Positions 14,875-30,364 are shown, counted from the first letter of the stretch. The stretch is DNA of 64,000 nucleotides from an uncultured Methylomirabilota bacterium (GCA_963845565.1 CAWJSJ010000005.1:32001-96000); one strand, 5' to 3'. Notes: generated by a model from the sequence alone, not told the origin. Program-made: numbers and translations.

Positions 14875-14930
14875 TTGACAGGCACGATGCGCCTCGGCTA
14901 GTCTGCCGCATTATTGAAACCGGTTTCAAT
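14875..14930 (+). promoter_or_regulatory. Sigma70 promoter and LacI-type operator
   Basis: TTGACA at 14875, TAGTCT at 14899, then a perfect 18-bp palindrome ATTGAAACCGGTTTCAAT at 14913-14930. Confidence 0.8.
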
Positions 14931-14947
14931 GAATCCTTTTTTGGACC

Positions 14948-16057
14948 GTGGCCGTGCCCGAACAGCGCGCACCGATCCATTCTCCCACCGTGTCCGACGT
15001 GGCGCGCCGCGCGCGTGTCTCGCGCGCCACCGTGTCCCGAGTGCTCAACCGGTACCCCCACGTCCGCTCTGAGGTCCGCGCCCGCGTGGAGCGGGCCATG
15101 GCAGCGCTCGCGTATCGACCGGACGCGGTAGCGCGCAGCCTGGCCCGGCGTGAGACGCGGACCCTCGGGTTGGTGGTGACCGACATCACAAACCCGTTCT
15201 ACGCGGAGACGGCGGCGGCCATCGTCAAGACCGCGCGTGCCCACGGCTACACCGTGATCCTCTGCGACACCGACAATATCGCGGATCTGCAGGCAGAGTA
15301 CATCGAGGTCCTCCGCCAGCGGCGGGTGGACGGGATCATCCTGGGTTCGGTGTTCCTCCGCGACCCGGCGGTGGAGCGACTGATCGACTCCGGCATGCCC
15401 TGCATGCTCTACAACCGTCGGCTCCGCTCGGGCCGAGGGAACTACGTGGTCCTGGACAACCTCCGGGCGGGGCGGGAGCTCACCCGGCATCTGCTGGGGC
15501 TCGGCCACTGCCGCATCGGCTTCATCGGGACGCTGGCCGGACTGTCGTCCGCCGCCGACCGACGGCGTGGGTACGGGGCGGCTCTGCGGGAGGCCGGCGT
15601 CCGCCCGCAGGCGCAGTTCGTCCGTATGCGCGGGGTGAAGCCGGAACTGGCGCGGGAAGCGGCCCGGGAGATTCTAGCCCTCCCGGATCGGCCGACCGCC
15701 ATCGTGGCAAGCAGCGACCGGGTGGCGTTGAGCGTGATGGAGATCGCCGCGGAGATGGGGTTGTCCGTCCCCGGTGACCTGGCCGTGGTCGGGGTGGACA
15801 ACATCCCCATGGCCGCCCACCAGGCCATCCAGCTCACGACGGTGGACCAGCACCTCGCCGAGATGGGCCGCCTGGCCGTGGAGGGCCTTCTGGGCATCAT
15901 TCGTGACCCGGAGCGCTATCGGCGGAGTCCGTTGCAGCAGGTCCTGGCGCCGACGCTCATCGTGCGGCGGACCTGCGGGGCGCTCGACCCGCGAGCGACG
16001 GTGCGGGGACGGCGGCTGCGATCATCCGCAGACCACAAAGGAGGCAGTCGTGGCTGA
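14948..16057 (+). CDS. LacI family transcriptional regulator
   Basis: TVSDVARRARVSRATVSRVLN, YRPDAVARSL, NPFY, VPGDLAVVGVD. Confidence 0.92.
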   Translation: MAVPEQRAPIHSPTVSDVARRARVSRATVSRVLNRYPHVRSEVRARVERAMAALAYRPDAVARSLARRETRTLGLVVTDITNPFYAETAAAIVKTARAHGYTVILCDTDNIADLQAEYIEVLRQRRVDGIILGSVFLRDPAVERLIDSGMPCMLYNRRLRSGRGNYVVLDNLRAGRELTRHLLGLGHCRIGFIGTLAGLSSAADRRRGYGAALREAGVRPQAQFVRMRGVKPELAREAAREILALPDRPTAIVASSDRVALSVMEIAAEMGLSVPGDLAVVGVDNIPMAAHQAIQLTTVDQHLAEMGRLAVEGLLGIIRDPERYRRSPLQQVLAPTLIVRRTCGALDPRATVRGRRLRSSADHKGGSRG

Positions 16058-17642
16058 GCGCAAGAAACCGATTCTCACGGCGGAGGAAGCTGCCCAGCTC
16101 GTTCCGAGTGGCGCCACGGTCACCGTGAGCAGCTCGGCGGCCCAGCTCGTTCCGGACAAGGTGCTGGCGGGGATCGGGGCGCGCTTTCTGGCGACGGGGG
16201 AGCCGAAGGGACTCACCATGCTCTTCCCGGTGGCGGTGGGCGACTCCTTCGGCACCGTGGGGATGGATCACCTGGCCCACATCGGCCTGATCAAGCGGCT
16301 CATCGGCGGCTCGTACGTGAACGGTCCGGCCTCGAAGCCGCCTCCGAAGATCTACGCCATGATCTTGAACGACCAGGTGGAGGCCTACAACCTTCCCCTT
16401 GGGGTCCTGATGCACCTGCACCGGGATATCGCAGCCAGGAAGCCGGGGGTCATCACCAAGATCGGATTGGGGACGTTCGTGGACCCCCGGGACCGAGGCG
16501 GGCGGATGAATGGCGTGACGCCGCCGGACCTGGTCGAGGTCATCCAGTTGCTGGGAGAGGAATGGCTGCTCTACCGGAGCTTCCCCATCCAGGTGGCCAT
16601 CATCCGGGGGACCTCGGCGGACGTGAATGGGAACATCACCACGGAGCACGAGGGGGTGACGCTGGCCGTCCTGGCCCAGGCGACGGCAGCGCACAACTCC
16701 GGCGGTAAGGTCATCGCCCAGGTGAAGCGCGTGGTGGCCGCGGGCACGCTTGACCCCCAGAAGGTGAAAGTCCCGGGAATCCTGGTGGACGCACTGGTGG
16801 TGGACCCGGACCAGCGCCAGAACACGGGGATTGCTTATGATCCGGCCATCAGCGGCGAAATCCACGCCGCGACGTTTCCGGTCGAGCCGGTGCCGCTCGG
16901 CCCGGAGAAGGTCATTGCGCGGCGCGCGCTCATGCAGATCCGGTCCGGCGACATCGTGAATCTGGGGTTCGGCATCTCCTCCCTGGTTCCGCAGATCGCT
17001 TTCGAGGAGGGGGTGTTCGACCGACTGAACTTCACGGTCGAGCAGGGGGCGGTGAATGGGCTGCCGCTCACCGGCTTCGCCTTCGGCGCCTCCCACAACC
17101 CCGAGGCGATCATCGACTCGCCGGCGCAGTTCGACCTGATCGACGGGGGCGGCGTGACGGTCGGCTGCCTGGCATTTGCCGAGGTGGACGGTGCGGGGAA
17201 CGTGAACGTCAGCCGACTGAAAGCCCAACCCCACGTGCTGGCGGGGGCGGGCGGCTTCATCAATATTGCCATGGGGACGCGAAAACTGGTGTATTGCGGG
17301 ACGCTGATGGCGGGCGGCCTGGACATCCGGATCGAGGACGGCCGGGTCCGGATCGTCCAGGAGGGGCGGTTCCAGAAGTTCGTGGAACGGGCGCAGGATG
17401 TGACATTCAACGGGCCGCGGGCGGCCGAGCAGGGGCAGGAGGTCTGGTACTTCACGGAACGCGGCGTGTTCCGCCTGGATCGCCAGGGACTGCTTCTGGT
17501 TGAGGTGGCGCCGGGCGTGGACCTGGACCGGGACATCCGGTCGAAGGTGGGCTTCCCGCTCCGGGTGGCGCCGGAGTGCCGGACGATGGATGCGCGCATC
17601 TTCCGCCCCGAGCCGATGGGGTTGGCGGCGGAGTGGACGTAG
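16050..17642 (+). CDS. Acyl-CoA:acetate/propionate CoA-transferase (YdiF/Pct-like, fused family I)
   Basis: EAYNLPLG, IGLGTFVDPR, NLGFGI, catalytic ExG (VEQG), GAGGFINI, TERGVF; AAAGGAGG RBS before GTG. Confidence 0.88.
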   Translation: MAERKKPILTAEEAAQLVPSGATVTVSSSAAQLVPDKVLAGIGARFLATGEPKGLTMLFPVAVGDSFGTVGMDHLAHIGLIKRLIGGSYVNGPASKPPPKIYAMILNDQVEAYNLPLGVLMHLHRDIAARKPGVITKIGLGTFVDPRDRGGRMNGVTPPDLVEVIQLLGEEWLLYRSFPIQVAIIRGTSADVNGNITTEHEGVTLAVLAQATAAHNSGGKVIAQVKRVVAAGTLDPQKVKVPGILVDALVVDPDQRQNTGIAYDPAISGEIHAATFPVEPVPLGPEKVIARRALMQIRSGDIVNLGFGISSLVPQIAFEEGVFDRLNFTVEQGAVNGLPLTGFAFGASHNPEAIIDSPAQFDLIDGGGVTVGCLAFAEVDGAGNVNVSRLKAQPHVLAGAGGFINIAMGTRKLVYCGTLMAGGLDIRIEDGRVRIVQEGRFQKFVERAQDVTFNGPRAAEQGQEVWYFTERGVFRLDRQGLLLVEVAPGVDLDRDIRSKVGFPLRVAPECRTMDARIFRPEPMGLAAEWT

Positions 17643-17710
17643 GGAAAAATTCGAATTTCGAAATCCGAAATTGAGAGACGGGCGAAAGACCGGCCGAAAG
17701 GGGAGTTGCG

Positions 17711-18160
17711 ATGGAGCGGTACTACGAGGACATGATGGTCGGAGAGGAGCACGTCTCGCCGGCGCGTACCATCACCGAGGCCGACGTGGTGAACTTCTCG
17801 GCCTTCTCGGGGGACTGGAGCCCGGTCCACAGCGACGAGGAGTGGTGCAAGCAGACGCCCTTCAAGACGCGGATTGCCCACGGGCTCCTCGGGCTGGCTC
17901 TGACCGAAGGGCTCAAGTTCCGCATTCCCGAATTCAGCGCGGCGCGCTACATGGCGTCGCTCTACTGGAACTACAAATTCACGGCGCCGATCCTGATCGG
18001 GGATACGGTCCGGCTGAGGGTGACTATCCAGAGCAAACGGGAGACAAAAAAACCGGACCGTGGGATCGTGATCGAGTACGTGGCGATGCTGAACCAACGG
18101 AATGAGGTGGTCGGCGAAGGCGAGCACGGCCTGATGGTCTACCGCAAGGGCAGTCTGTGA
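17711..18160 (+). CDS. MaoC family dehydratase (hot-dog fold)
   Basis: RTITEADVVNF...GDWSPVHSD...RIAHG; P.LIGDT. Confidence 0.88.
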   Translation: MERYYEDMMVGEEHVSPARTITEADVVNFSAFSGDWSPVHSDEEWCKQTPFKTRIAHGLLGLALTEGLKFRIPEFSAARYMASLYWNYKFTAPILIGDTVRLRVTIQSKRETKKPDRGIVIEYVAMLNQRNEVVGEGEHGLMVYRKGSL

Positions 18161-18177
18161 CACGAGGGAACCCAAGT

Positions 18178-18260
18178 AACCGCAGATTACGCAGATTGCG
18201 CAGATTCTCCGAGAACCCAAGTGGCGGGATCCATCTGTGTCATCTGTGAAATTAGCGGTT
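18178..18260. repeat. Inverted pair of 9-mer trimers
   Basis: AACCGCAGATTACGCAGATTGCGCAGATT...ATCTGTGTCATCTGTGAAATTAGCGGTT; homologous to 19492 and 30378. Confidence 0.75.
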
Positions 18261-18317
18261 TAGGCCAGATCGCTTGGTGGCCCAGTTGCCAAATTGCCAT
18301 CACTTATGGAGGCGGGA

Positions 18318-19460
18318 ATGGATTTCGAGTTGAACGATGCGCAGCGGATGCTGCGGGACATGGTGCGGGACTTTGCCGAAAAGGAGATCAAACCACGGGC
18401 CGCAGAGATCGACCGGACGGACGAGTTTCCGTGGGATCTGTGGAAGCGCATGGCCGAGCTGGGCATCCTGGGGATGACCCTGCCGCCCGAGTACGGCGGC
18501 TCGGGCATGGACATCGTGAGCTGGGCCATCGCGCAAGAGGAGATGGCGCGTGCTTCGGTGGTAGTGGCCGATATCCAACTTCTCAGCACGCTGATGCAGA
18601 ACATGATCCTCAAGAACGGGACCGACGCCCAGAAGCAGAAGTACCTGCCGGCTCTCGGCTCGGGAGAGAAGATCTGCATCATCGCGCAAACCGAGCCCGG
18701 CGCAGGGTCCGATGTGGCCGGGATCCAGACCACGGCGAAACCGGAGCGGAACGGGTACGTCCTGAACGGCACCAAACGGTTCTTGACCTGCGCCATGCTG
18801 GCCGACCTGGCGATCGTGGTGGCGACCGTGGACAGGAGCAAGGGGCACAAGGGGATCACGCTGTTCCTGGTGGAGAAGGGGACGCCCGGCTTCTCGCCCG
18901 GATCCAAAGAGCACTTGATGGGTGTCAAGGGGATGGGGACGGGCGAGGTGGTCCTGGACAACTGCTGGGTACCGAAGGAGAACCTGCTAGGCGGCGAAGG
19001 GGAAGGATTCAAGCGCGCCATGATGTCCCTCGACACGGGGCGCATCGGCATCGGCTGCCAGGCGGTGGGGCTGGCGCAGGCTGCCATGGAGGAGGCCATC
19101 CGCTACGCCAAGCAGCGGACCGCTTTCGGCGGCCCCATCGCGAACCTCCAGGCTATCCAATTCATGCTGGCGGACATGTCGGCGGGGATCGAGGCGGCTC
19201 GGCTGCGCCTTCGGCACGCCGCGTGGCTGAAGGACCAGGGGCGGTCGATCATTCGCGAAGCCGCCGAGGCGAAGCTGCTGGCGTCGGATCTGGCGGTGAA
19301 GGTGACGGCGGACGCGCTCCAGATCCATGGCGCATACGGCTACAGCGTCGACTTTCCCATCGAGCGGATGTACCGCGAGGCAAAGGTGTATCAGATCTGG
19401 GAGGGCACCAGCGAGATCCAGCGGGTGGTGATCGCGCGACAGTTGTTGAAAGAGTATTAG
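18318..19460 (+). CDS. Acyl-CoA dehydrogenase
   Basis: PPEYGGSG, TEPGAGSD, LNGTK, GRIGI, QIHGAYGY, catalytic IWEGTSEIQR. Confidence 0.92.
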   Translation: MDFELNDAQRMLRDMVRDFAEKEIKPRAAEIDRTDEFPWDLWKRMAELGILGMTLPPEYGGSGMDIVSWAIAQEEMARASVVVADIQLLSTLMQNMILKNGTDAQKQKYLPALGSGEKICIIAQTEPGAGSDVAGIQTTAKPERNGYVLNGTKRFLTCAMLADLAIVVATVDRSKGHKGITLFLVEKGTPGFSPGSKEHLMGVKGMGTGEVVLDNCWVPKENLLGGEGEGFKRAMMSLDTGRIGIGCQAVGLAQAAMEEAIRYAKQRTAFGGPIANLQAIQFMLADMSAGIEAARLRLRHAAWLKDQGRSIIREAAEAKLLASDLAVKVTADALQIHGAYGYSVDFPIERMYREAKVYQIWEGTSEIQRVVIARQLLKEY

Positions 19461-19491
19461 TGCTTCATCCGGGCCGCGCAGAATCGGGGGG

Positions 19492-19700: not shown

Positions 19701-19722
19701 CACAGCTCTTGGGGAGGGTGAC

Positions 19723-20469
19723 ATGCAATTCGCGGGGAAGGTGGCGTTGGTGACGGGCGGGGGGTCGGGGATCGGGAGGGCGACCTGCGAGCTCTTTGCC
19801 GGGCGGGGCGGGGCCGTGGTGGCGGCGGATGTGAACGAAGCGGCGGCCGCGGCGACGGCCGAGGGGATCCGGAAAACGGGAGGGCGAGCGATAGCAGTGC
19901 GCTGCGATGTCACGCTCTGGGATCACGTCCAGGCGGCTGTGGATCGCGCACGGACGGAGTACGGCAGCCTGGATGTGGTCGTCAACTGCGCCGGCATCTT
20001 GAAGGGCCACCTTCTGGAGGAGACGCCGGAAGCCGAGTGGAGACAGATGCTGGACGTGAATCTCACGGGTGCCTTCTTGGTCACCAAAGCGGCGCTCAAG
20101 GCGATGCGGGAGCAGGGTGGCGGTGCCATCGTCCACATCGCGTCGCGCATGGCCATCCGGGTCAAGGAGGGGCACGGCGCCTATGCCGCGGCCAAGGCGG
20201 GCATCCTGCAACTGACCCAGATGGCCGCGCTGGAGGGCGCGCCCCACAAGATCCGGGTCAACTGCGTCTGCCCTGGTTTTGTGGATTCGCCGATGACGCG
20301 CGGCGGATACCAGGACGACGCGTTCGAGGGCTGGAACAAGGTCTGTCCGCTGGGCCGGCCCGCCGTCCCCGAGGATATCGCCAAGGCGATGCTGTTCCTG
20401 GCCTCGGACGAGGCGGCGTTCATCACCGGGGTGGCGTTGCCGGTGGACGGGGGGCGGACGATTCTCTGA
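19723..20469 (+). CDS. SDR family oxidoreductase
   Basis: TGGGSGIG, NCAG, YAAAK, IRVNCVCPG, VDGG. Confidence 0.92.
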   Translation: MQFAGKVALVTGGGSGIGRATCELFAGRGGAVVAADVNEAAAAATAEGIRKTGGRAIAVRCDVTLWDHVQAAVDRARTEYGSLDVVVNCAGILKGHLLEETPEAEWRQMLDVNLTGAFLVTKAALKAMREQGGGAIVHIASRMAIRVKEGHGAYAAAKAGILQLTQMAALEGAPHKIRVNCVCPGFVDSPMTRGGYQDDAFEGWNKVCPLGRPAVPEDIAKAMLFLASDEAAFITGVALPVDGGRTIL

Positions 20470-20624: not shown

Positions 20625-21665
20625 GTGAAGTTGCGAGGCGGCGTTTTTGGCTGCGGGATGATCTCGGAGTTTCACCTGCGGGGCTGGCAGCGCATCCCCG
20701 AGGTGGAGATCGTGGCGCTCGGCAATCGCACCCTCAGCCGCGCCGAGGCCCGACGCGACGAGTTCGTTCCGGCGGCCCGCGTGTACGCAGACCTCGACAC
20801 CATGCTTCGCGAGGAGCGGCTGGACTTCGTGGACATCCTCAGCGTGCCCTGGCTCCACAGGGAGCACTGCGTCCAGGCCAAGGCGGCCGGCGTCCATGTG
20901 ATCTGCCAGAAGCCGCTTTGCGATTCGCTGGAGGACGCCCAGGCGCTGCTTCAGGAGATGAAGGGGTATCCCAAGCTCTTCGCCGTGCATGAGAACCACC
21001 CGTATCGTCCGTGGTTTCAGACTGTTCTCGCATGCCATCGAGATGGCAAATTCGGTACGCCCCGTTTCCTGCGCCTCGCGCAATACGATGGAAAGGAGCC
21101 GCCGGAGGCCTATAAGAACGAGGCGAAGCTGGGAGTCCTGCTGGAGTATGGCACGCATCTGATTGACATGCTCCTGACCCTCCTTGGGACTCCGACTCGC
21201 GTGTATGCGCGCCTGAGCCATGGAAATCCCCGAATGCGGGGAGAGCATCTGGCGTTCGTGGTGTTCGAGTATCCGGAGACCACGGCGGTCGTCGACATCG
21301 CGTGGAAACCGGGCGGACTGCCCCACGGCGGGTTCATCCTGGAAGGGGACACGGGCGCGGTCCTGTACGAGGGCACGATGACGCGCGGTACCGCTTCGCG
21401 GTTCCGGGTCACCCAGGGGGATGCCGGAGTGATCGACGAGATGCGGTCGCCCTACGACGACTACGTGGAGAGCTTTTACCGCTTGGAGCGTGAGTGTGCG
21501 GACTGCATGCTCACCGGAAGGCCGGTCACCCAGTCGGCCGCGCGAAACTTTCAAACGCTCGCGGTGACTTTCGCGGCGTACCGGTCGGCGGAGACCGGCC
21601 GGATCATCGAGATTGACCGCTTCCTGGAGACCGAGTCGAAGGGGCAGGGGTCTTGCCGCCATTGA
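20625..21665 (+). CDS. Gfo/Idh/MocA family oxidoreductase
   Basis: GCGMIS..H, HVICQKP, HENH, EYGTHLID. Confidence 0.88.
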   Translation: MKLRGGVFGCGMISEFHLRGWQRIPEVEIVALGNRTLSRAEARRDEFVPAARVYADLDTMLREERLDFVDILSVPWLHREHCVQAKAAGVHVICQKPLCDSLEDAQALLQEMKGYPKLFAVHENHPYRPWFQTVLACHRDGKFGTPRFLRLAQYDGKEPPEAYKNEAKLGVLLEYGTHLIDMLLTLLGTPTRVYARLSHGNPRMRGEHLAFVVFEYPETTAVVDIAWKPGGLPHGGFILEGDTGAVLYEGTMTRGTASRFRVTQGDAGVIDEMRSPYDDYVESFYRLERECADCMLTGRPVTQSAARNFQTLAVTFAAYRSAETGRIIEIDRFLETESKGQGSCRH

Positions 21666-21706: not shown

Positions 21707-22192
21707 GTGGTCAATGTATTGCTGAAGGTGCTCGACTGGTTCTGCAACGTGACATCGCTCATCATCCTCTATGTCACCGTGGTGGTGATCTTCGTCCAGG
21801 TGATCTGCCGCTATGTTCTCGAGGTGGCCCTTCCCTGGACCGAGGAGTTCGCCCGCTTTGCGTTTCTCTGGCTGATCTTCCTGGCCAACGCCATGGCCGA
21901 GCGCCAGAAGGAGCACTTCCGGGTGAGTTACTTCGTGGAGCAGGCCCCACGGAGGCTGCGCTACGGCTTCTGGGTCGCCGGCGAAATCCTCATCTTCACC
22001 TTCTTCATCTGGCTGCTCATGGATAGCCTGGCCTTCGTGCAGATGGGCAAACGGATGATCTCACCCGTGATGCAGCTTCGCCTAGACTGGATCTACTGGG
22101 GGCTCCCGGCAGCCGTGATGCTCAGCCTCCTGAACCGGTCCCGTAACATCGTGGCCGTCCTTCACGAGCGGCCCGACAACCCGTTCGCTTGA
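21707..22192 (+). CDS. dctQ: TRAP transporter small permease
   Basis: QVICRY..PWTEEFAR..H.RV; four TM segments; AAGGAGG RBS. Confidence 0.88.
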   Translation: MVNVLLKVLDWFCNVTSLIILYVTVVVIFVQVICRYVLEVALPWTEEFARFAFLWLIFLANAMAERQKEHFRVSYFVEQAPRRLRYGFWVAGEILIFTFFIWLLMDSLAFVQMGKRMISPVMQLRLDWIYWGLPAAVMLSLLNRSRNIVAVLHERPDNPFA

Positions 22193-22210: not shown

Positions 22211-23503
22211 ATGCTGAGTGGAACCGTCTTATTGCTGCTCTTCTTGGTGTTGATGTTCATGGGCATCCCGGTCGCGCACTCCATGATCATCACCGCCTAC
22301 ATCACCATCAAGTTCATCCATCCCGAGATCCCGACGATCATCGTGGCGCAGCGGCTCTTCGGGGGGGCCGATAATTACATTCTCCTCTGCATTCCCTTCT
22401 TCATCTTGGCCGGCGATCTGATGTCCATGACGACCCTCTTCGACCGCCTGATCAAGGTGGCCAACGCGATGGTGGGACACATTCGAGGGGCGCTCTCCCA
22501 CATCACCATCGTGGTGGCGATGTTCTTCGCCGGGATCACCGGGGCGGCGGTCGCCGACACCTCGGCCGTGGGGACGGTCCTCATCCCGGCCATGATCAAA
22601 CAGGGGTACAGCCGGGCCTACTCCACGGCGCTTACTGTCGTGTCCTCGACCATCGGCGTAATCATCCCGCCGAGCAACCTTATGGTGGTGGCGGCACTGG
22701 TGTCCTCTTCCTCGGTCGCCGCGCTGCTTCTGGGCGGGGTGATCCCGGGCGTCCTGGCGGCGGCTTCGCTCCTTGTCGTGAGCGTGTACTATGGGATCAA
22801 GTACAACTTCCCGAAAGAGCCCAAGCTCACCTGGGGGGGGCGCGCCAAGGCGCTCTGGCACGGCATCCCGGCGCTCGGCATCCCCGTCGTCCTCATGGGC
22901 GGCATCCTCACCGGCATCGTGACCCCGACCGAGGCGGCCAACATCTCCATCATCTACGCCATCATCGTCGGGCCCATCATGATGCGCGGGTTCCCACCGT
23001 TGAAAGAGATCTACAGGAGCTCGGTCGGGGTGTGTACCCGGACATCGGCCGTGATGATCGCCGTGGGCGCCTCGGTCATCTTCGGCTGGATCCTGGCCAT
23101 CGCCCAGGTGCCGGAGGCCATCGCCGAGTTCATCACCACTTACACCTCCAGCAAGATTCTCATCATCGCCGGGATGCTGTTTACCTACCTCGCCATTGGG
23201 ACGTTCCTGGACGCCATACCCATCATCCTGATCTTCACGCCGATCTTTCTTCCCTTGGCCGAGAAGCTGGGCATCCCGGTGGTGGCCTTCATGGTGACGA
23301 TGGTCTTCGCCTCGGCTATGGGGTTGGCCAGTCCCCCTTGCGGTTCCTGTTTGTGGGTAGGCGCGGCCATCGGCGATATTCAGGTGGAGAAATTCACCTG
23401 GGAATTGATTCCGTTCCTGAGCGCGATGACCGCCATCCTGGCGCTGATTGCATACTGGCCTGACGTCATCATGTGGTTGCCGAATCTCTTGCTCGGAAAA
23501 TGA
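22211..23503 (+). CDS. dctM: TRAP transporter large permease
   Basis: IPFFILAG, FAGITGAAVAD, IIPPS, TPTEAA, SPPCG. Confidence 0.92.
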   Translation: MLSGTVLLLLFLVLMFMGIPVAHSMIITAYITIKFIHPEIPTIIVAQRLFGGADNYILLCIPFFILAGDLMSMTTLFDRLIKVANAMVGHIRGALSHITIVVAMFFAGITGAAVADTSAVGTVLIPAMIKQGYSRAYSTALTVVSSTIGVIIPPSNLMVVAALVSSSSVAALLLGGVIPGVLAAASLLVVSVYYGIKYNFPKEPKLTWGGRAKALWHGIPALGIPVVLMGGILTGIVTPTEAANISIIYAIIVGPIMMRGFPPLKEIYRSSVGVCTRTSAVMIAVGASVIFGWILAIAQVPEAIAEFITTYTSSKILIIAGMLFTYLAIGTFLDAIPIILIFTPIFLPLAEKLGIPVVAFMVTMVFASAMGLASPPCGSCLWVGAAIGDIQVEKFTWELIPFLSAMTAILALIAYWPDVIMWLPNLLLGK

Positions 23504-23606: not shown

Positions 23607-24611
23607 ATGGATCGCAAGCGCGTTGCACGGTTTGTTTTCACGGTCGCCGTCCTGGCGGTAGCCGGCCTGATCGCGGCCGTTCCTGTCGCCCAGGCCGGGC
23701 AGGTGACGCTGAAGCTGGCAACGAGCCAGCCGCCGAAGGGCGGATTTCTGGGCGATACCCCCAAGGTGTTCGCCGACGAGGTGGAAAAACTCACCAAGGG
23801 GCAGGTGAAGGTCCAGGTTTTCCACTCCGGCTCGCTCAGCTCCAACGAGGCCGAGCTGTTCCAGATGGCCCAGAGCGGCGCGGTGGATCTCGCGATCGGG
23901 GCCACCACTTATATCCTGGGCTGGACTCCTCGGGCCAAGGTTTTCGATCTCCCCTACCTGTTCGAGGGCGCGCCCCACTTCAAGAAGGTGGTGCAGGGGA
24001 AGGTGGGTGAGGTCATCGCCAAGGAGGTCGAGGACGACGGGGTCTATCTCATCACCTACATCCTTCCCGGCGTGCGGAGCATCTTCAGCACCAAGCGGTC
24101 CATCGAGAAGATCGAGGACGCCAAGGGCATGAAGATCCGCAGCATGCAGAGCCCGGTGTACATCGATATGTTCAAGAACATGGGCATGCTGCCGACCGCT
24201 CTCCCCGCCTCGGAGCTGTACACCTCGCTCCAAACGGGCGTGGTGGACGCCGGCGAGAACGACGCCGCCAGCGTGGTGAGCTGGGGCTGGGTGGACGTGA
24301 TCAAGTTCTACTCGTTGAACGAACACTCCATCTCCTGCAACGTGATGATCGTGAACAAGAAGAAGATGGACAGCCTGCCCGCCGACGTTCAGAAGGCCAT
24401 CCGCGAGGCGGGAAAGAAGGCGGAGAACTACCAGCTCGACTACATCCAGAAGGCGCTGGCCGAGAACCTGGAGAAGATCAAGGCCAAGGGGGTCAAGGTC
24501 AACGTCATCACGGACCGGAAGCCCTTCCAGGATGCGGTGAAGGACATCATCGCCAAGTACGAGCCGGAGATCGGCAAGGACCTGATCCAGGCCGTCCGCG
24601 ACGCGAAGTAG
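23607..24611 (+). CDS. dctP: TRAP substrate-binding protein, paralog 1
   Basis: Signal peptide; FDLPYLF, GMKIR (carboxylate-binding Arg), ELYTSLQTGVVDA.EN. Confidence 0.9.
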   Translation: MDRKRVARFVFTVAVLAVAGLIAAVPVAQAGQVTLKLATSQPPKGGFLGDTPKVFADEVEKLTKGQVKVQVFHSGSLSSNEAELFQMAQSGAVDLAIGATTYILGWTPRAKVFDLPYLFEGAPHFKKVVQGKVGEVIAKEVEDDGVYLITYILPGVRSIFSTKRSIEKIEDAKGMKIRSMQSPVYIDMFKNMGMLPTALPASELYTSLQTGVVDAGENDAASVVSWGWVDVIKFYSLNEHSISCNVMIVNKKKMDSLPADVQKAIREAGKKAENYQLDYIQKALAENLEKIKAKGVKVNVITDRKPFQDAVKDIIAKYEPEIGKDLIQAVRDAK

Positions 24612-24809: not shown

Positions 24810-25808
24810 ATGAGTATCTGGAGCGTAATGCGCTGCGCGATGGTTCCGCTGGTCGTGTGTGTGGTCGTCTTGGCCGGGTTCGCGGAGGCTGGCGAGTTCA
24901 CCCTGAAGCTGGCGACCAGTCAGCCACCCAAGGGGGGATACCTCGGCGGGATGGAGAAGGTCTTCGCCGATGAATTGGAGAAACTGACCAAGGGCCAGGT
25001 CAAGACGCGAATCTTCCACTCCGGTTCGCTCAGCTCCAACGAGGCGGAACTGGCCCAGATGGCCCAGAGCGGGGCCGTGGACGCCTCAATCGCCGCCACC
25101 ACCTACATTCTCGGCTGGGCCCCATCCATGAAGGTGTTCGATCTGCCGTATCTCTTCGAGGGCGCGGGCCATTTCAAGCGGGTGGTGCAGGGGCCGGTGG
25201 GCGAGAAGCTGGCCAGGCAGGTCGAGGATGACGGCGTGGTGTTGGTTGCGTATACTCTTCCCGGCATTCGGAGCATCTTCAACACCAAGCGTCCCATCGG
25301 GAGCCTCGAGGACGCCAAGGGGATGAAGATCCGCAGCATGCAGAGCCCCGTCTATGTCGACATGTTCAAGTCCTTCGGGATGCTGCCCACTCCGATGCCA
25401 TCCTCCGAGCTCTACACCTCGCTCCAGACGGGCGTGGTGGACGCCGGCGAGAACGATCCGGCCAGCGTGGTGAGCTGGGGCTGGGTGGACGTGATCAAGT
25501 ATTACTCGCTGGACGAACACTCGCTCACAGCATGCGTGCTCCTGCTGAACAAGAAGCGGTTCGACGGTTTCTCCCCCGAGATACAGAAGGCCATCCGCGA
25601 GGCGGGGAAGAAGGCCGAAACCTACCAGCTTGACTACATCGAAAAGGCGGCCCTCGAGAATCTGGAGAAGATCAAAGCCAAGGGGGTCAAGGTCAACGTC
25701 ATCGCGAACAAGAAGCCTTTCCAGGATTCGGTCAAGCACATTGTCGCCCAGTACGAGAAAGAGATCGGCCCCGACATCGTGCAGGCGGTGCGAGACGCAG
25801 CGAAGTAG
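24810..25808 (+). CDS. dctP: TRAP substrate-binding protein, paralog 2
   Basis: Same motifs, with long stretches identical to paralog 1. Confidence 0.9.
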   Translation: MSIWSVMRCAMVPLVVCVVVLAGFAEAGEFTLKLATSQPPKGGYLGGMEKVFADELEKLTKGQVKTRIFHSGSLSSNEAELAQMAQSGAVDASIAATTYILGWAPSMKVFDLPYLFEGAGHFKRVVQGPVGEKLARQVEDDGVVLVAYTLPGIRSIFNTKRPIGSLEDAKGMKIRSMQSPVYVDMFKSFGMLPTPMPSSELYTSLQTGVVDAGENDPASVVSWGWVDVIKYYSLDEHSLTACVLLLNKKRFDGFSPEIQKAIREAGKKAETYQLDYIEKAALENLEKIKAKGVKVNVIANKKPFQDSVKHIVAQYEKEIGPDIVQAVRDAAK

Positions 25809-25887
25809 GGGTGCGGACGCCTGGGCGGAGTCAGGGCTTCGCCCCGGCAGACCGGCTGGGAACGCAGGAGTGATGGAGGACCCGACG

Positions 25888-28257
25888 ATGCGTGCGCCGC
25901 AAGATCGGACGGCGAGGCTGCGCAACCGACTCATGGGCCACGAGCCTTCCGTGTGCCATGAGCGCGCGGCGATCGTGACGGAAGTATACGAACGACTGTC
26001 GGGCACCCTATCGCCGATCCTGCTCCGGGCGCACGCGCTGGCCGCTGTCCTGGACCGAATGTCCGTTTTCATCGGGCCCGATGAGCTGATCGTCGGCAAC
26101 CAGGCCAGCCGGCCGCGCTCGGCGCCGATCTTTCCGGAATACTCCTGGGAGTGGATTCTCGAGGAGTTGGACACGCTGCCGACGCGCGCGGCCGATCGGT
26201 ATGCCGTTCCGCCCGAATCACGGGAGGCGCTCCGGGACATCCTGCCCCGGTGGCAGGGGAAGTCGTTCCGCGACCGGGCCGTTCACGCGTTACCCGAGGA
26301 CGTCCTCCAGTCCCATCAATCGCTGCTCTTCCTGCTCACCAGCATGGGTTGCGGCGTGGGGCACCTGGCGCCGGATTACGCGCGGGTGCTCACCCGGGGT
26401 CTTTCGGCGATCGCCCGGGATTCGCGGGAGCGGCTGACAGCGCTGGATCTGACCGATCCGGACTCGATCCGGAAGCGGGACTTCTGCCAGGCCGTCGCGG
26501 TGGTGGCCGAAGCGGCGATCCGGTTCGCCGGCCGTTTCGCGGAGCGTGCGGAACAGATGGCGGCCGCAGAGGCATGCCCGGACCGGCGAGCCGAGTTATC
26601 GGAGCTCGCGCGAATCTGCCGGAAGGTGCCGGCCGAACCGGCGGACACCTTCCACGAGGCGCTGCAATCCTTCTGGTTCGTTCACCTCGTCATCCAGATC
26701 GAGTCGAACGGCCACTCCATCTCGCCGGGCCGCTTCGATCAGTACATGAGCCCGTTCTGCGAGGCCGACCGGATCGGCGGGCGTCTCGATCGCGACGGCG
26801 CGCTGGAGCTGCTCGACTGCCTCTGGGTCAAGTTCAACGAGATCATGAAGCTGCGCGACAAGACGGCCTCGATCGGGTTTGGGGGATACCCGCTGTTCCA
26901 GAACCTGATCGTCGGCGGGTTGACACGCGACGGCCGGGACGCCACCAACGACCTTTCGTATCTGTGCTTGGAGGCCACCCGGCGGACGCGCCTCCCGCAG
27001 CCGTCGCTGTCGGTCCGCATCCACGCCGATACACCGCGCGAGCTCCTCCGCGCGGCCGCGGACCTGGCGCGGGAAGGGCTGGGACTTCCGGCGTTCTTCA
27101 ACGACGACGCCATCGTCCCGGTGCTCCAGAACATGGGTGTGCCCCTGGAAGAGGCCCGGGGCTATGCCGAGGTCGGTTGCGTCGAACCCCAGGTGCCGGG
27201 CAAGACCAACGGGTATTATCCGGCAGGCTTTCTGAACCTGGGCAAGGTGCTGACCATGGCCCTCCATAACGGGACCGACCCGGTAACCGGGAAACAGCTC
27301 GGTCCGGCCGATCCGGAGGGCCAGGGCTTCGCGTGTTACGGCGACATCGTGGCGGCGCTCGACCGGCAACTCGACCACGTCATCCGGCTGATCGTGATCG
27401 GCGACAACATCCTCGACGACCTGCACGGGAGGCTCGCGCCGAACCCGTTCGTCTCCCTGCTGGTGGACGATTGTCTGGCGCACGGCCTGGCGTACGAGCA
27501 GGGCGGAGCGGTCTACAACTACACGGGGCCGAACAGTGTGGGGCTGGCCAACGTGGCGGACGCCCTGATGGCGATCAAGCGCCTGGTCTTCGAGGAGCGG
27601 CGGGTCGAGATGAACGCCCTCTTGGCGATGCTCGACGAGGACTTCGTTGAACGTGAGAGCGGCCGGCTCCTCCTGCTCAACCGTGCCCCCAAGTTCGGCA
27701 ACGACAACGAGGAGGTGGACCAGATCGCCCGCGACCTCGCCACGCGAATCCTGACGGGATTCAAGCAGTACCGGAACCCGCGCGGTGGCCGGTACGAGCC
27801 GGGGTTGCAGAGTATCTCCGCGCATGCGCTCTTCCGCGACGCGGTCGCCGCCACACCAGACGGCCGGACGACCACGATGCTGCTGGCCGACGGCGGGATC
27901 TCTCCCGCCCAGGGGCGCGATCGGCGCGGCCCCACCGCGGTGATCCGGTCGGCGGCCCGGCTGGACCATCGGGAGGCCTCGAACGGAACGCTCCTCAATG
28001 TCAAGCTGAGTCCCCAGTCGGTCGCCGGGGAGGCGGGGTTGGAGAACCTTGCAGCACTGGTGCGAACGTACTTCGGCCTGGGGGGGCAGCACATCCAGTT
28101 CAATGTGATCAACACCGCCGTCCTGCGCGACGCCCAACGACACCCCGAATGCCACCGAGACCTGGTCGTGCGCGTGGCGGGCTTCAGCGTCCTCTTCACC
28201 ACCATCGACCCGGTGCTGCAAGAGGACATCATCGAGCGCACCGAGCACCGTGTCTGA
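25888..28257 (+). CDS. Glycyl radical enzyme, dehydratase/eliminase (PFL2/GD-like) type
   Basis: ELIVG, IESNGHSISPGRFDQ, Cys loop VGCVEP, PKFGND, ATPDGR, HIQFNV, glycyl loop DLVVRVAGF; GGAGG RBS. Confidence 0.92.
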   Translation: MRAPQDRTARLRNRLMGHEPSVCHERAAIVTEVYERLSGTLSPILLRAHALAAVLDRMSVFIGPDELIVGNQASRPRSAPIFPEYSWEWILEELDTLPTRAADRYAVPPESREALRDILPRWQGKSFRDRAVHALPEDVLQSHQSLLFLLTSMGCGVGHLAPDYARVLTRGLSAIARDSRERLTALDLTDPDSIRKRDFCQAVAVVAEAAIRFAGRFAERAEQMAAAEACPDRRAELSELARICRKVPAEPADTFHEALQSFWFVHLVIQIESNGHSISPGRFDQYMSPFCEADRIGGRLDRDGALELLDCLWVKFNEIMKLRDKTASIGFGGYPLFQNLIVGGLTRDGRDATNDLSYLCLEATRRTRLPQPSLSVRIHADTPRELLRAAADLAREGLGLPAFFNDDAIVPVLQNMGVPLEEARGYAEVGCVEPQVPGKTNGYYPAGFLNLGKVLTMALHNGTDPVTGKQLGPADPEGQGFACYGDIVAALDRQLDHVIRLIVIGDNILDDLHGRLAPNPFVSLLVDDCLAHGLAYEQGGAVYNYTGPNSVGLANVADALMAIKRLVFEERRVEMNALLAMLDEDFVERESGRLLLLNRAPKFGNDNEEVDQIARDLATRILTGFKQYRNPRGGRYEPGLQSISAHALFRDAVAATPDGRTTTMLLADGGISPAQGRDRRGPTAVIRSAARLDHREASNGTLLNVKLSPQSVAGEAGLENLAALVRTYFGLGGQHIQFNVINTAVLRDAQRHPECHRDLVVRVAGFSVLFTTIDPVLQEDIIERTEHRV

Positions 28258-29170
28258 GCCGGCGACCGACCCATCCGGGATCATCTTCGACATCCAGCGG
28301 TTCTCGGTGCACGACGGGCCGGGTATCCGTACGCTGGTCTTCTTCAAGGGCTGTCCGCTCGCCTGCCTGTGGTGCTCGAACCCCGAGTCGCAGCGGTTCG
28401 ATCCCGAACTCCTCTTCGATCCGACGAATTGCCTCGCCTGCGGCGGCTGTGCGGAGGTGTGCCCTCACGGAGCCGTCTGGCGCACTGCCGAAAAGTTGGC
28501 GTATGACAGGGGCCGATGTCTTGCGTGCGGCGCGTGCGCCGACGCCTGCCCGGCCGAGGCGCGGACGGTGGCCGGGCGGCGGGTCGCGGCCCCAGACGTG
28601 GTGGCCGAGGTCTTGAAGGACGCCCCGTTCTACGCCAACTCCGGTGGGGGGGTGACCCTGGGGGGCGGTGAGCCGCTGGCCCAATCGGATTTCGCCCGTG
28701 CGATCCTCGCGGGGTGCCGTTTCCATGGGCTCCATACCGCGATCGAGACTTGCGGCCATGTCCCGTGGGCGGCCTTCGAGTCGATCCTGCCCTGGACCAA
28801 TCTGTTCCTCTACGACCTCAAGCACGTGGATGCGGCGACGCACCGGGGGCAGACGGGTGGGGACATCGCGCTCATCCTCTCCAACCTGGAGCGGCTCGTC
28901 GGCGCCAGCGCGACGGTGGTCGTCCGTGTGCCGGTTGTCCCGGGATTCAACGATTCGGCGGAAGATATCCGGGCTATCGCCCGGCAGGTCGCCCGACTTG
29001 GGATCGGGGCGCTTCACCTTTTACCCTACCACCGGCTCGGTCAGAACAAGTATCGGCTGGCGGGTCGGCAGTACGAATTCGCGGGCGGCGACCCAGTGGG
29101 GGACGGTACATTGGCAACACTCCGGGACGCAGTTGCACATCTTGGCCTGTCCGTCACGATCGGCGGGTAA
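28250..29170 (+). CDS. Glycyl-radical enzyme activating protein (radical SAM with ferredoxin insert)
   Basis: HDGPGIRT, GCPLACLWCSNPE, two CxxCxxCxxxCP motifs, GGEP, LLPYH. Confidence 0.92.
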   Translation: MSEPATDPSGIIFDIQRFSVHDGPGIRTLVFFKGCPLACLWCSNPESQRFDPELLFDPTNCLACGGCAEVCPHGAVWRTAEKLAYDRGRCLACGACADACPAEARTVAGRRVAAPDVVAEVLKDAPFYANSGGGVTLGGGEPLAQSDFARAILAGCRFHGLHTAIETCGHVPWAAFESILPWTNLFLYDLKHVDAATHRGQTGGDIALILSNLERLVGASATVVVRVPVVPGFNDSAEDIRAIARQVARLGIGALHLLPYHRLGQNKYRLAGRQYEFAGGDPVGDGTLATLRDAVAHLGLSVTIGG

Positions 29171-29236
29171 TCGGTTTGGTTTCGGCTTGACGCCTGCGGG
29201 GGGATGTGGTCTGCTTTTCGGCGGGAGGTGGTCGGC

Positions 29237-29425
29237 GTGACGACATGGGGTATCGTTGGACTGGCGTTGCTGTTGGCCTACATTGCGGTCTGCTTCGGGA
29301 GGATCGCCGGCAAGCACGGACGGAACCCGATCCTCTACGGTGTTCTGTCCATCATCTCGCCGGTCAATCTGATCCTGCTCGGAATCTGGGCGTTCTCTCG
29401 GACGGAAACTACAACGAGACGTTGA
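29237..29425 (+). CDS. Small membrane protein
   Basis: Two hydrophobic segments around RIAGKHGRNP; GGAGG RBS. Confidence 0.6.
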   Translation: MTTWGIVGLALLLAYIAVCFGRIAGKHGRNPILYGVLSIISPVNLILLGIWAFSRTETTTRR

Positions 29426-29461
29426 ACGATCTCGTTCCGCGCTGGTCAAAGGAGCGTCATC

Positions 29462-30364
29462 ATGCCTGATACCGCACTTGGCTTTCTCGGACTGGGCGTC
29501 ATGGGCGGGCCGATGGCCCGGAATCTGGTGAAGGCCGGCTATCCGGTGACCGCCTACGATCCCGACCCCGGCCGGCTGAAGGCCTTCACCGACGCCGGGG
29601 GCAACGCCGCGGCCTCGGCGGCCGCGATCGCCCGGGCGGGAGAGATCGTTTTCCTGTCGCTTCCCACCGGGGACGTGGTCCGGCAGGTGGTCATGGCGGA
29701 CGGGGGGCTCGCCTCCACGATGCCCTCGGGCAGCCTCATCGCCGACCTGAGCACCACGGAGGCAAAGTTGGCCCAGGACGCGGCGGCGGCCTGTGCCACG
29801 CGCGGGATCACCTTCATGGATACCCCGGTGAGCGGGGGCGAGCAGGGGGCCATCGACGCGACCCTGTCCATCATGGTGGGCGGGGCCGCCGCCGGCTTCG
29901 CCCGCGTTGCGCCCATCCTGGCCTGCATGGGCCGTTCCGTCGTGCACATGGGGGGGAGCGGCCTGGGGCAGGCGACCAAGCTCATCAACAACATGATCGT
30001 CGCCGCCGGCTTCGCCGCGGTCTGCGAGGCGTGGGCGCTCGGCGCCAAGGTCGGCCTGGATCCGGCCATGCTGCACGAGGCCATCAAGGGGGGCTGGGCG
30101 GGATCGCGGGTCATGGAAGAGACGGTCCCCCGCCTCTTGGCCAGGAACTTCGTCCCCGGCGGGACCGTGGACATCGCGGTCCGGGACGTCGCCTACGGCC
30201 TGAACATGGCCCGCGGCCTGGATGTCCCGGTTCCGGTGGCGAGCCTGGCCCATGAGCTGTTCCGCATGGCCAAGTCCCAGGGGCAGGGGCCGAAGGCCCA
30301 GCCGATACTCATCACCCTCTGGGAGCAGTGGCTGGGGATCACCGTCGGCGGGGGGAAAAGCTAG
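29462..30364 (+). CDS. NAD(P)-dependent beta-hydroxyacid dehydrogenase (3-hydroxyisobutyrate/tartronate semialdehyde reductase family)
   Basis: GLGVMGGPMARNL, DTPVSGG, LSIMVGG, GQATKLINN. Confidence 0.9.
   Translation: MPDTALGFLGLGVMGGPMARNLVKAGYPVTAYDPDPGRLKAFTDAGGNAAASAAAIARAGEIVFLSLPTGDVVRQVVMADGGLASTMPSGSLIADLSTTEAKLAQDAAAACATRGITFMDTPVSGGEQGAIDATLSIMVGGAAAGFARVAPILACMGRSVVHMGGSGLGQATKLINNMIVAAGFAAVCEAWALGAKVGLDPAMLHEAIKGGWAGSRVMEETVPRLLARNFVPGGTVDIAVRDVAYGLNMARGLDVPVPVASLAHELFRMAKSQGQGPKAQPILITLWEQWLGITVGGGKS

Follow-up and report, generated by a model that had tools for sequence, protein, structure and literature searches.

Characterized glycyl radical eliminases

The characterized enzymes closest to the glycyl radical enzyme (GRE) described here are the B12-independent glycerol dehydratase (GD) of C. 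butyricum (1R8W/1R9D) and the GRE propanediol dehydratase (PD; 5I2A, 9RCO), with 43 and 46% identity, respectively. E. coli YbiW and PflD share 38.5 to 39.8% identity with it (YbiW, 38.5%). YbiW abstracts at C2 and cleaves the C1-O bond, and the resulting 1-deoxy-ketose is then cleaved by an aldolase (PMC13450708). In E. coli, fsaA adjoins ybiW, and pflD lies among PTS genes. An Arg/Gln/Arg sulfonate triad marks the C-S lyases IslA, IseG and HpsG (PMC13450708). HypD (6VXC/6VXE; 34.8% identity) acts on a carboxylate, which it binds through neutral residues (PMC7077986). In the extended sulfo-transaldolase pathway, an isomerase, a transaldolase, a beta-hydroxyacid reductase and a GRE are encoded in one cluster (PMC11489063).

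Organization and control of the locus

The locus lies in a 64-kb window, which is the whole stretch of DNA that was analyzed. From the LacI gene to the beta-hydroxyacid dehydrogenase (bHAD) gene there are 13 genes, all co-oriented on the + strand in the order of Table 1. As a first-pass annotation of this DNA had proposed, they encode the named proteins, with curated family matches (Pfam, NCBIfam) and intact catalytic motifs. The perfect LacI operator recognized at that stage was also confirmed. The window contains 10 palindromes of at least 14 bp, of which this operator is the longest, and it is single-copy in the 5.36-Mb genome when up to three mismatches are allowed. Six related loci (L012, L017, L070, L086, L088 and L080) have an exact copy of its 16-bp core where the LacI gene or the operon begins, and L079 has a copy with one mismatch. 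The spacing of the promoter is repeated in L012, L079 and L080, and the promoter was not among the matches listed by a consensus promoter scan. The two absences claimed earlier held as well: microcompartment (BMC) shell genes gave 0 matches across the 98.7% complete genome (the control was positive in 2 of 14), and no locus protein matched an aldehyde dehydrogenase family in Pfam. The source is a wetland bacterium, and the GRE is predicted to be oxygen-sensitive.

Table 1. Features of the locus and its upstream flank, in window coordinates.
Feature	Position	Strand	Family match or motif
Two Zn-dependent dehydrogenases (backbone pair)	11737..13865	+	PF08240, PF00107
Sigma-70-like promoter	14875..14904	+	TTGACA (14875-14880), 18 nt, TAGTCT (14899-14904)
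LacI-family-type operator	14913..14930	.	perfect 18-bp palindrome, central CG
LacI-family regulator (CoA cassette)	14948..16057	+	PF00356, PF00532, PF13377
Fused family I CoA-transferase (CoA cassette)	16050..17642	+	PF01144
MaoC-type (R)-enoyl-CoA hydratase/dehydratase (CoA cassette)	17711..18160	+	PF01575; D..H motif
Acyl-CoA dehydrogenase (ACAD) / enoyl-CoA reductase (CoA cassette)	18318..19460	+	PF00441, PF02770, PF02771
SDR oxidoreductase (CoA cassette)	19723..20469	+	PF13561, PF00106; YxxxK intact
Gfo/Idh/MocA oxidoreductase	20625..21665	+	PF01408
TRAP small permease DctQ	21707..22192	+	PF04290
TRAP large permease DctM	22211..23503	+	PF06808; TIGR00786 335.9 > 268.45
TRAP binding protein DctP1	23607..24611	+	PF03480
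TRAP binding protein DctP2	24810..25808	+	76% identical to DctP1; predicted model pLDDT 95.1
GRE	25888..28257	+	PF02901, PF01228; GLQSISAH signature
Radical-SAM activase, ferredoxin-like insert	28250..29170	+	TIGR02494 355.5 > 174.35
bHAD	29462..30364	+	PF03446, PF14833; catalytic Lys intact

A GRE subfamily with a different conserved pocket

The most likely start codon of the GRE is ATG 25888, giving 789 amino acids; residue numbers are counted from codon 25885. It passes TIGR01774 (779.8 bits, cut-off 678.2) and none of the curated cut-offs of characterized GREs. The GCVEP and RVAGF motifs are intact, as is the CxxxCxxC motif at residues 35-42 of the activase. The highest-scoring folds for the predicted model (pLDDT 93.9) are those of 5I2A (Z 58.0) and 1R8W (Z 56.9), with an rmsd of 1.4 over about 780 residues. 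With its Gly loop, Cys-X-Glu loop, PFL barrel and cognate activase, the protein is a PFL-like GRE of the 1,2-eliminase type.

GD/PD and this enzyme have the His/His/Ser/Phe/Cys/Glu core in common. Specifically, H160, H277, S278, K322, F332, C432 and E434 correspond to GD H164, H281, S282, K323, F333, C433 and E435. In contrast, the GD/PD residues D447, H446, Y640, S642 (or V) and N645 are replaced, as is the NYYYN loop, the changes from GD being D447→P446, H446→Y445, Y640→Q642, S642→I644, A449→G448 and N645→H647. The distal pocket of GD, formed by Y339, D447, Y640 and S642, is not kept, and F338, P446, Q642 and I644 stand in its place. Across 88 subfamily rows Q642, H647, G448, F332 and F338 are invariant, and none has Asp at position 446. 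In a tree that included no HpfG sequence, a branch with support of 100 sets the 19 subfamily rows apart, next to the GD/PD group and YbiW. Judged by sequence, the GRE represents an uncharacterized subfamily with the GD/PD catalytic core but a different conserved pocket, in agreement with its earlier description as an uncharacterized C-O eliminase.

Several assignments to characterized enzymes were considered and rejected. F338 and I644 resemble the Phe/Val pair of PD, but the equivalents of D447 and Y640 are lost, the branch is separate and the genome has no microcompartment locus. Also unlike GD/PD, the GRE is TRAP-linked and has no adjoining Fe-ADH. YbiW likewise lacks the GD Asp and Tyr (C454 and S662 in YbiW), and its I664, G456, S161, H165, H282 and S283 are common to the GRE, whereas S338 and R453 differ from F332 and Y445. 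Placement among the YbiW/PflD isomerases fails on the separate branch, the only partly similar pocket (S338, Y344, R453) and NF007437 (646.5 against 1109). F332 is a bulky Phe, as in GD, at a site where Ser is present in YbiW and HypD, both of which bind larger anionic substrates, an observation that counts against the sugar-acid reading developed below.

HypD has the same Gly and His at positions 448 and 647, and its D278, S334, T645 and R156 are missing. Its diagnostic set (D278, S334, D339, F340, Y450, T645) meets H277, F332 and I644 in the GRE (NF043068, 641.7 against 1100). The scores are equally far under cut-off for the DHPS dehydratase HpfG (NF048009, 577.7 against 1000), for CutC (TIGR04394, 548.4 against 1050), which has Asp at the GD H164 position where the GRE has H160, and for HpsG (554 against 1000). 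At the sulfonate-triad sites, placed by alignment to L009 with its R204/Q208/R692, the GRE has C156, H160 and G640. Despite the GCVE motif and an importer fold that ties with the isethionate binder IseP (Z 40.9), it is thus very improbable that the enzyme is a diverged copy of such a sulfonate, amine or hydroxyproline GRE (HpfG, HpsG, IslA, CutC, HypD) acting on a compound imported by the TRAP system: the equivalog scores, the triad positions and the missing Asp, Ser and Thr of HypD and Asp of CutC all argue against it, and the neighboring genes are sugar-acid genes.

An importer for organic acids and a sugar-acid neighborhood

DctQ most likely starts at GTG 21707. Arg127 and Arg148 are invariant in 25 of 25 aligned DctPs, and this conserved pair identifies the importer as apparently of the carboxylate type. 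The proposed pairing of GRE and importer was upheld across the subfamily, in which a TRAP gene occurs at 17 of the 20 loci from genomes and at 22 of the 40 from metagenomes. Orthologues of DctP1 with 50-62% identity adjoin the GRE in Spirochaetota and Bacillota. That GRE loci carry their own TRAP importer argues for an imported substrate. Two DctP classes are found across these loci, and the subfamily may comprise more than one specificity. In a DctP fold search the top rows, with 23-33% identity, tied at Z 40-41.5 and included the sugar-acid binder 7BBR as well as IseP, so the search does not discriminate between sugar-acid and isethionate binders.

Relatives of the GRE span several phyla, gut bacteria included. 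In other phyla the GRE gene lies near genes for isomerases, epimerases and reductases of sugar acids, for a rare transaldolase-like aldolase together with tartronate-semialdehyde reductase (GarR), or for a thiamine-dependent E1/E2 set. Most of these matches score below curated cut-offs, among them an IolO-like 5-keto-gluconate epimerase (178.7 and 267 against 300 bits) and a gluconate-5-dehydrogenase-like SDR (350.9 against 408). An NPN group 22 isomerase (524.8 against 400) and a true GarR (455 against 397), the latter alongside two TAL-family proteins, exceed theirs. Additionally, there are an RpiB-like isomerase, read as lacking the usual phosphate-binding residues, a KduI/IolB-like isomerase and PDH/acetoin-type E1a/E1b/E2. 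Oscillibacter operons combine an isomerase, a reductase (Gfo), the GRE and TRAP genes with no C3 enzymes, and L019, L024, L029 and L037 are minimal GRE-activase-TRAP operons.

Because its relatives mostly adjoin an organic-acid importer and sugar-acid enzymes, the GRE likely deoxygenates an imported sugar acid, and an imported sugar or polyhydroxy acid is its probable substrate class. We assign a rough probability of 0.4 to the more specific reading, in which it would cleave the terminal C-O bond of an imported aldonate (or anhydro form) to give a deoxy-keto acid. We know of no such GRE reaction described so far. The adjacent TRAP system would import the acid, the Cys432 thiyl radical would abstract hydrogen from the second-last carbinol, Glu434 would deprotonate the hydroxyl of that carbinol and the oxygen leaving the terminal carbon would be protonated by His160. 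This would yield a methyl ketone, such as 6-deoxy-5-keto-hexonate from a hexonate, with the regiochemistry of YbiW/PflD. Isomerases (RpiB-like, KduI/IolB-like), 5-reductases (Gfo, SDR) and C2-epimerases (LarA/NPN) would feed in related acids. The ketone would then be split by the transaldolase-like aldolase into hydroxyacetone and tartronate semialdehyde, which GarR would convert to glycerate, or alternatively by the E1/E2 set into acetyl-CoA and an aldehyde acid. YbiW/PflD (with FsaA/FsaB) are likewise linked to TAL/FSA-family aldolases, although their substrates are phosphorylated, in contrast to the predicted TRAP-imported acid. Known non-radical dehydratases process an ordinary hexonate at lower cost, and the true substrate may therefore be an unusual one. 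More tentatively still, this may be the first GRE family acting on sugar acids, making 6-deoxy-5-keto-aldonates (or opening anhydro-aldonates); the products would then be split by a transaldolase-like aldolase of a new kind or by an acyloin-cleaving complex that depends on thiamine. If true, an unrecognized anaerobic sugar-acid pathway would operate in wetlands, digesters and the gut.

Other regiochemistries were weighed against terminal cleavage. GD and PD are the nearest folds and sequences, and with GD-type regiochemistry on a longer acid, hydrogen would be taken from the terminal CH2OH and the neighboring hydroxyl lost, converting tetronate to malate semialdehyde or 3,4-dihydroxybutyrate to succinic semialdehyde. 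With smaller residues at positions 446 and 642 the distal pocket could be longer, and the top DctP sequence matches include 4PDH, 4P9K and 4NQ8, presumably erythronate or pantoate binders. Such a reaction is nevertheless unlikely, since across the family neither an aldehyde dehydrogenase nor a conserved reductase adjoins the GRE, and omega-semialdehydes are not substrates for MaoC, the isomerases or the aldolase. Slightly less probable again is a reaction in which a modified sugar acid loses a substituent and becomes a 2-keto-3-deoxy acid, with the GRE replacing the dehydratase of the uronate-isomerase pathway; methanol loss from an O-methylated uronate-derived aldonate is a hypothetical candidate. 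The Oscillibacter layout is that of a uronate pathway, the minimal operons need a product usable by common enzymes and E1/E2 sets act on 2-oxo acids, but the links to the aldolase, GarR and the IolO-like epimerase would be left unexplained.

The sugar-acid assignment of the subfamily and the aldolase link are new in this analysis. At L045, TAL and GarR genes share one operon with the GRE, a cluster resembling that of the sulfo-transaldolase pathway (PMC11489063), except that the reductase is a tartronate-semialdehyde reductase and not an SLA reductase (198.6 against 348). Six of the eight GRE-bearing gut-Bacillota genomes carry an aldolase orthologue (73-84%) on another contig, among TRAP, IolO-like and SDR genes. 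Among 350 other genomes of the same family, the aldolase occurs in four and the GRE in none; an aldolase found without the GRE and with feeder genes of its own could therefore equally supply glycerate to the GRE. Spirochaete genomes have aldolase homologues of 28-37% only, and none was found in G017, G258, G259, G260, G265 or G267. The link is limited to gut Bacillota, where the genomes are kin and incomplete.

The CoA cassette and the glycerate route

The first-pass interpretation combined a GRE class and TRAP partner, which stand, with a single GRE-CoA pathway, which as one evolved unit is not supported. Within the genus, the CoA cassette, including the CoA-transferase, is present in 18 of 21 genomes versus 5 for the GRE, and 13 genomes have the cassette without the GRE. 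The L079 operon is identical except that GRE and activase are missing, and outside the genus no CoA-transferase, MaoC or ACAD gene adjoined the GRE in the loci examined. Co-occurrence of these genes with the GRE, proposed as a test, thus largely fails, and the reading as one evolved unit is therefore unsupported. The CoA genes are a separate module, often found without the GRE. Similarly, bHAD had been taken for the semialdehyde reductase of the GRE. It is found in 16 of 21 genus genomes, directly 3' of the upstream Zn-dehydrogenase in 6 of those, and therefore is not GRE-specific. Instead, it is a backbone gene partnered with the upstream Zn-dehydrogenases, the second of which is present in 19 of 21 genomes, and the cassettes are inserted between that pair and bHAD. 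The bHAD fails the GarR model NF008592 (265.8 against 397), and a true GarR (471.4 bits) is encoded elsewhere in the genome.

In the sugar-acid reading, the TRAP-GRE-activase module of this genus lies within an older LacI-controlled CoA-ester cassette. The chance that the cassette consumes the GRE product seems slightly less than even; if true, a sugar-acid pathway would be wired into a CoA-ester cassette in Methylomirabilales.

In the main rival explanation, the GRE would act on a 2,3-dihydroxy acid and eliminate its 2-hydroxyl, converting glycerate to malonate semialdehyde or longer aldonates to 3-oxo acids. Reduction of the product by CoA-transferase, SDR or bHAD, MaoC and ACAD would then serve as an electron sink and yield propionyl-CoA or a longer acyl-CoA. 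The route in gut Bacillota would be the carboxylate counterpart of the extended sulfo-transaldolase pathway, leading from uronate through 5-keto-aldonate, tartronate semialdehyde and glycerate to the GRE. Removal of an alpha-hydroxyl is chemistry that requires a radical, the GRE retains F332 and the catalytic core of GD, and the missing acidic D447 suits an anion, for which HypD and its neutral residues are a precedent (PMC7077986). The four cassette enzymes fit reverse beta-oxidation of a 3-oxo acid. The cassette, including MaoC, is found in all five GRE genomes of the genus, and the same TRAP accompanies it in three further genomes. The operon shared by TAL, GarR and GRE at L045 is consistent with this route, as are the sulfo-transaldolase precedent with HpfG (PMC11489063) and the racemization of glycerate by LarA enzymes (PMC11770544). 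However, the 13 genus genomes with the cassette and no GRE have other feeders, namely an IlvD/Edd dehydratase (L091), a class III aminotransferase (L095) and an SdhA-like flavoprotein. In addition, the backbone bHAD is just 38% identical to true GarR, GRE operons own an importer, and those of Oscillibacter pair an isomerase and Gfo with no C3 enzymes. The E1/E2 neighbors mismatch malonate semialdehyde, and the family-wide neighbors favor longer sugar acids. Overall, 2-hydroxyl removal appears less probable, and conversion of glycerate through malonate semialdehyde to propionyl-CoA is a possibility.

Within the cassette, the CoA-transferase scores below the FadX model cut-off (362.9 against 750). 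The ACAD, whose catalytic Glu is intact, fails the acryloyl-CoA reductase AcrC model NF042972 (465.8 against 640), though this is the best of 22 families, and ETF genes are located elsewhere in the genome. The sole PDB match of the Gfo/Idh/MocA oxidoreductase at E<=1e-15 is 5UHW.

The glycyl radical enzyme and its subfamily

What is new at this locus, as judged from sequence, is a distinct glycyl radical enzyme (GRE) subfamily, which has no counterpart among characterised GREs and is lodged in a CoA-ester cassette. The nearest relatives of the window's GRE are the glycerol and propanediol dehydratases (GD and PD), with 43-46% identity, and the enzyme retains their catalytic set of H160, H277, S278, F332, C432, E434 and G766 (numbering from the codon at 25885). 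In contrast, the pocket differs from that of GD. Specifically, P446 replaces D447, Y445 replaces H446, G448 replaces A449, Q642 replaces Y640, I644 replaces S642 and H647 replaces N645, while the 152-156 loop is shorter and smaller. In GD, D447 and Y640 presumably have contact roles in the pocket. The signature was found in 88 of 121 aligned rows (the 120 best homologues and the query), the other 32 counted being GD/PD-like, and Q642, H647, G448, F332 and F338 are invariant across the 88.

Trees were built with FastTree. When GD, PD, YbiW, PflD, HypD and CutC were included as references, the 19 subfamily rows formed one side of a branch with a support of 100, in a tree that used 18 of the 87 subfamily homologues and left out the loci L007, L010 and L011. 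None of the profile models of characterised GREs reaches its cut-off with the window enzyme. A June 2026 review covers six C-O eliminases, three C-S lyases, three isomerases and CutC, with a sugar-acid substrate for none. In its eliminase and isomerase sections, whole clades are said to be without a function, and neither glycerate nor any aldonate or uronate is given as the substrate of a GRE (PMC13450708). Likewise, a literature search, mostly of titles and abstracts and with most subscription journals outside its scope, turned up neither a sugar-acid substrate nor this neighbourhood for any GRE. Because it has its own branch, reaches no model cut-off and is absent from those sections of the review, the GRE corresponds to no known enzyme. 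The first-pass annotation would have been refuted at this point by a GRE that clusters with a characterised enzyme and keeps all of its substrate residues; the window's GRE does neither. By these sequence comparisons, the subfamily is distinct, real and uncharacterised. The plasmid collection contained no member of it (55 records, all < 60%).

Two other GREs were observed. The window's genome encodes a second, divergent one, with the Cys loop GCCNP (no Glu) and RVTGY, which adjoins TRAP, creatininase-like and amidohydrolase genes and scores under every curated cut-off. A further uncharacterised type occurs in the genus (L006 and L008, from genomes G010 and G015), with the pocket residues F281, R326, S336 and G342 and PflD as its nearest relative in the tree.

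Coordinates of the locus and of associated features
Feature	Sequence	Coordinates	Remark
Operon	window	14948-30364	13 genes
GRE	window	25888-28257 (+)	
RNA-run contig piece X15	window	25640-26194	555 nt, DctP2-GRE
Nucleotidyltransferase-like gene	window	13975-14493	DUF6036/DUF2204
Intergenic repeats	window	18160-18318; 19460-19723	also after bHAD
Interspersed repeat, ~105 nt	window	30771-30880; 31315-31420	inverted arms
SdhA-like flavoprotein	L012	4777-6510	also L081, L085, L090, L092, L093
Transaldolase-like family	L045	15539-17688	also L107-L112, L119-L122
Spirochaete activase	L022	7495-8079	likewise L050
Second GRE	G000:C1	940706-942511	L105:8281-10500
Sugar-acid cluster L100	G000:C2	861000-877000	

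A separate CoA-ester cassette

The locus had been read as one anaerobic pathway in which a hydroxy-acid passes through the GRE to the CoA genes, for example from glycerate to propionyl-CoA. The gene content was confirmed, as all 13 named genes are present, co-oriented and intact by family matches and catalytic motifs. The unit itself, however, proved to be a mosaic. Among the 21 genomes of the genus, a CoA-transferase orthologue is present in 18, whereas a GRE orthologue (at least 72%) is present in 5, one of them with in-frame stops (251 genomes of the phylum searched). Genome G009 carries LacI, CoA-transferase, MaoC, ACAD, SDR, Gfo, DctQMP and the beta-hydroxyacid dehydrogenase (bHAD) in the window's order, with GRE and activase absent. 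CoA-transferase and ACAD orthologues lie beside the GRE in 2 of 60 loci, both from close kin of the window, a count that understates the linkage of the CoA-transferase within the genus because the 10-kb flank, which may leave this gene outside the locus even in the window's own layout, can miss it. In other phyla the GRE is accompanied by none of these CoA genes, as judged from long loci whose operons are closed by unrelated genes. The CoA genes are thus a module separate from the GRE, a genus-wide cassette in which the GRE is lodged.

GRE-less cassettes in the fetched regions follow the order LacI-(SdhA-like)-CoA-transferase-(MaoC)-ACAD-SDR, and in other genomes the front position is taken either by an IlvD/Edd dehydratase or by an aminotransferase of class III. 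The second Zn-dehydrogenase is found in 19 of the 21 genus genomes, bHAD in 16 and the window-type DctP in 8, and the Zn-dehydrogenase directly adjoins bHAD in 6 genomes. In G017, the TRAP-GRE-activase genes follow a second LacI that has a variant operator. Cassette and GRE may be linked by the imported acid, since the cassette, MaoC included, is present in all five GRE genomes of the genus and a window-type TRAP lies beside it in three GRE-less genomes. An SdhA/fumarate-reductase-like flavoprotein, not found in the window's copy, is part of the cassette in six genomes and suggests an enoate intermediate. Elsewhere in the window's genome, the cluster L100 combines TRAP, IolO-like, IolB-like, gluconate-5-dehydrogenase-like SDR, Gfo and KDPG-type aldolase genes. 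It includes a CoA-transferase paralogue, and therefore this family does meet sugar-acid genes in the window's genome.

The importer

A motif scan that accepts only exact degenerate matches yielded at least 20 loci from GTDB genomes of Bacillota, Spirochaetota, Methylomirabilota and a deltaproteobacterium and at least 40 from metagenomes, near-copies among them being L045/L056/L065/L073, L021 and L018, L030 and L014, and L057 and the window. A TRAP gene accompanies the GRE in 17 of the 20 genome loci and 22 of the 40 metagenome loci; those without one are mostly short contigs, with L027, at 19 kb, a true exception. There are two DctP classes. The first, with 50-81% identity to the window's, is common to spirochaetes, the Methylomirabilales and part of the Bacillota, whereas gut Bacillota are served by the second. 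The scores of a DctP fold search did not tell candidate ligands apart.

The activase of a spirochaete GRE is only 195 aa by ORF call, so that either the enzyme is shortened or its start was called wrongly. Gut metagenomes often hold a deletion allele in which the N-terminal 60% of the GRE is fused to DctM (P0129-P0150; L042, L047). It is without the Gly loop, activase and DctP/Q, but the LacI behind is retained; one such cluster has 481 members.

Sugar-acid neighbours and proposed chemistry

Outside the genus, the neighbours of the GRE are sugar-acid enzymes. RpiB-like and KduI/IolB-like isomerases occupy the same operon slot in Oscillospiraceae loci, the KduI-like protein having no PDB match. 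Gfo reductases, gluconate-5-dehydrogenase-like SDR, IolO-like epimerases and LarA/NPN enzymes also occur, the last having 2-hydroxy acids as substrates according to PMC11770544. E1a/E1b/E2 sets lie near the GRE in five low-GC loci, and the gut element L045 carries two transaldolase-like proteins and GarR (tartronate-semialdehyde reductase) above the cut-off. The substrate of the subfamily is probably a sugar acid.

The aldolase family is rare, 350 aa long and matches solved transaldolases with E ~1e-12; its only Atlas label is TAL_FSA. It clusters with an IolO-like epimerase, SDRs, GarR and TRAP, and these clusters may constitute a separate 5-keto-aldonate transaldolase pathway, so far undescribed. 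The aldolase serves as a marker: in 6 of 8 gut-Bacillota genomes with the GRE, an orthologue (73-84%) is encoded elsewhere in the genome, clustered with TRAP, IolO-like and SDR genes. Of 350 further genomes of the same taxonomic family, only 4 had the orthologue, and a GRE was seen in none of these 4. This co-occurrence is a pointer and carries no statistic, because the genomes are related to each other and incomplete. In other phyla the link is weak or absent; the window's genome encodes a homologue at 49% identity and, likewise elsewhere, a true GarR, neither beside sugar-acid genes.

Formation of tartronate semialdehyde by an aldolase requires a 5-keto-hexonate. In the chemistry proposed here, all steps of which we infer, the GRE would abstract at C5 and release O6, and so make this substrate as a 6-deoxy-5-keto compound. 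Alternatively, the GRE would act after the aldolase, on glycerate, an order that agrees with the retention of F332, suits the CoA cassette and has a precedent in sulfo-TAL/HpfG (PMC11489063). It is less favoured than the 6-deoxy-5-keto order because the GRE operons carry their own importer, because an acyloin methyl ketone also fits the IolO-like epimerase as well as the E1/E2 set, and because the pocket changes parallel those of YbiW. YbiW performs the same kind of cleavage, abstraction followed by C-O loss, on a C6 sugar, as stated in PMC13450708. It is paired with an FSA aldolase, and an aldolase of the FSA/TAL kind is linked to both enzymes, for the GRE in L045 and gut Bacillota.

With its sharp signature, a predicted dedicated importer whose ligand is open to screening and a gut member (P0084) that represents 802 sequences at the 90% cluster level, the subfamily lends itself to a study of new radical chemistry on sugar acids derived from plants and hosts. 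The mosaic origin of what looked like a pathway in one genome alters which substrates to try first.

Operator, sequencing-run data and flanking elements

The operator at the operon head is a perfect 18-bp palindrome, unique in the window's genome at up to 3 mismatches, and a promoter of the TTGACA-18-TAGTCT type precedes its core. The core recurs exactly at the heads of the related operons L012, L017, L070, L080, L086 and L088, and with one mismatch in L079. The absence of a microcompartment extends to the whole genome of the window, which lacks BMC shell genes. The window's Gfo matches PDB entry 5UHW, which we take to be an apiose-pathway oxidoreductase. Rfam gave 0 matches within window positions 10000-34000. 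Contigs from RNA runs, such as X15, overlap parts of the locus and say nothing on transcription or its level. The names that homologues carry assign the organism to Ca. Methylomirabilota, order Methylomirabilales. At least half of the sampled words were present in 14 DNA runs, 8 of them labelled wetland (7) or freshwater (1).

A nucleotidyltransferase-like gene lies between the Zn-dehydrogenases and the promoter, a slot held by PIN-domain genes in L087 and L088; such genes may be passengers of the toxin-antitoxin type in a hot spot for insertion. Between the cassette genes and after bHAD lie intergenic repeats of the form GATTACGCAGATT...AATCTGCGTAATC. The ~105-nt interspersed repeat has no Rfam match; with 191 blastn matches of at least 70 nt in the window's genome and very deep coverage in all four runs mapped, it appears MITE- or REP-like.
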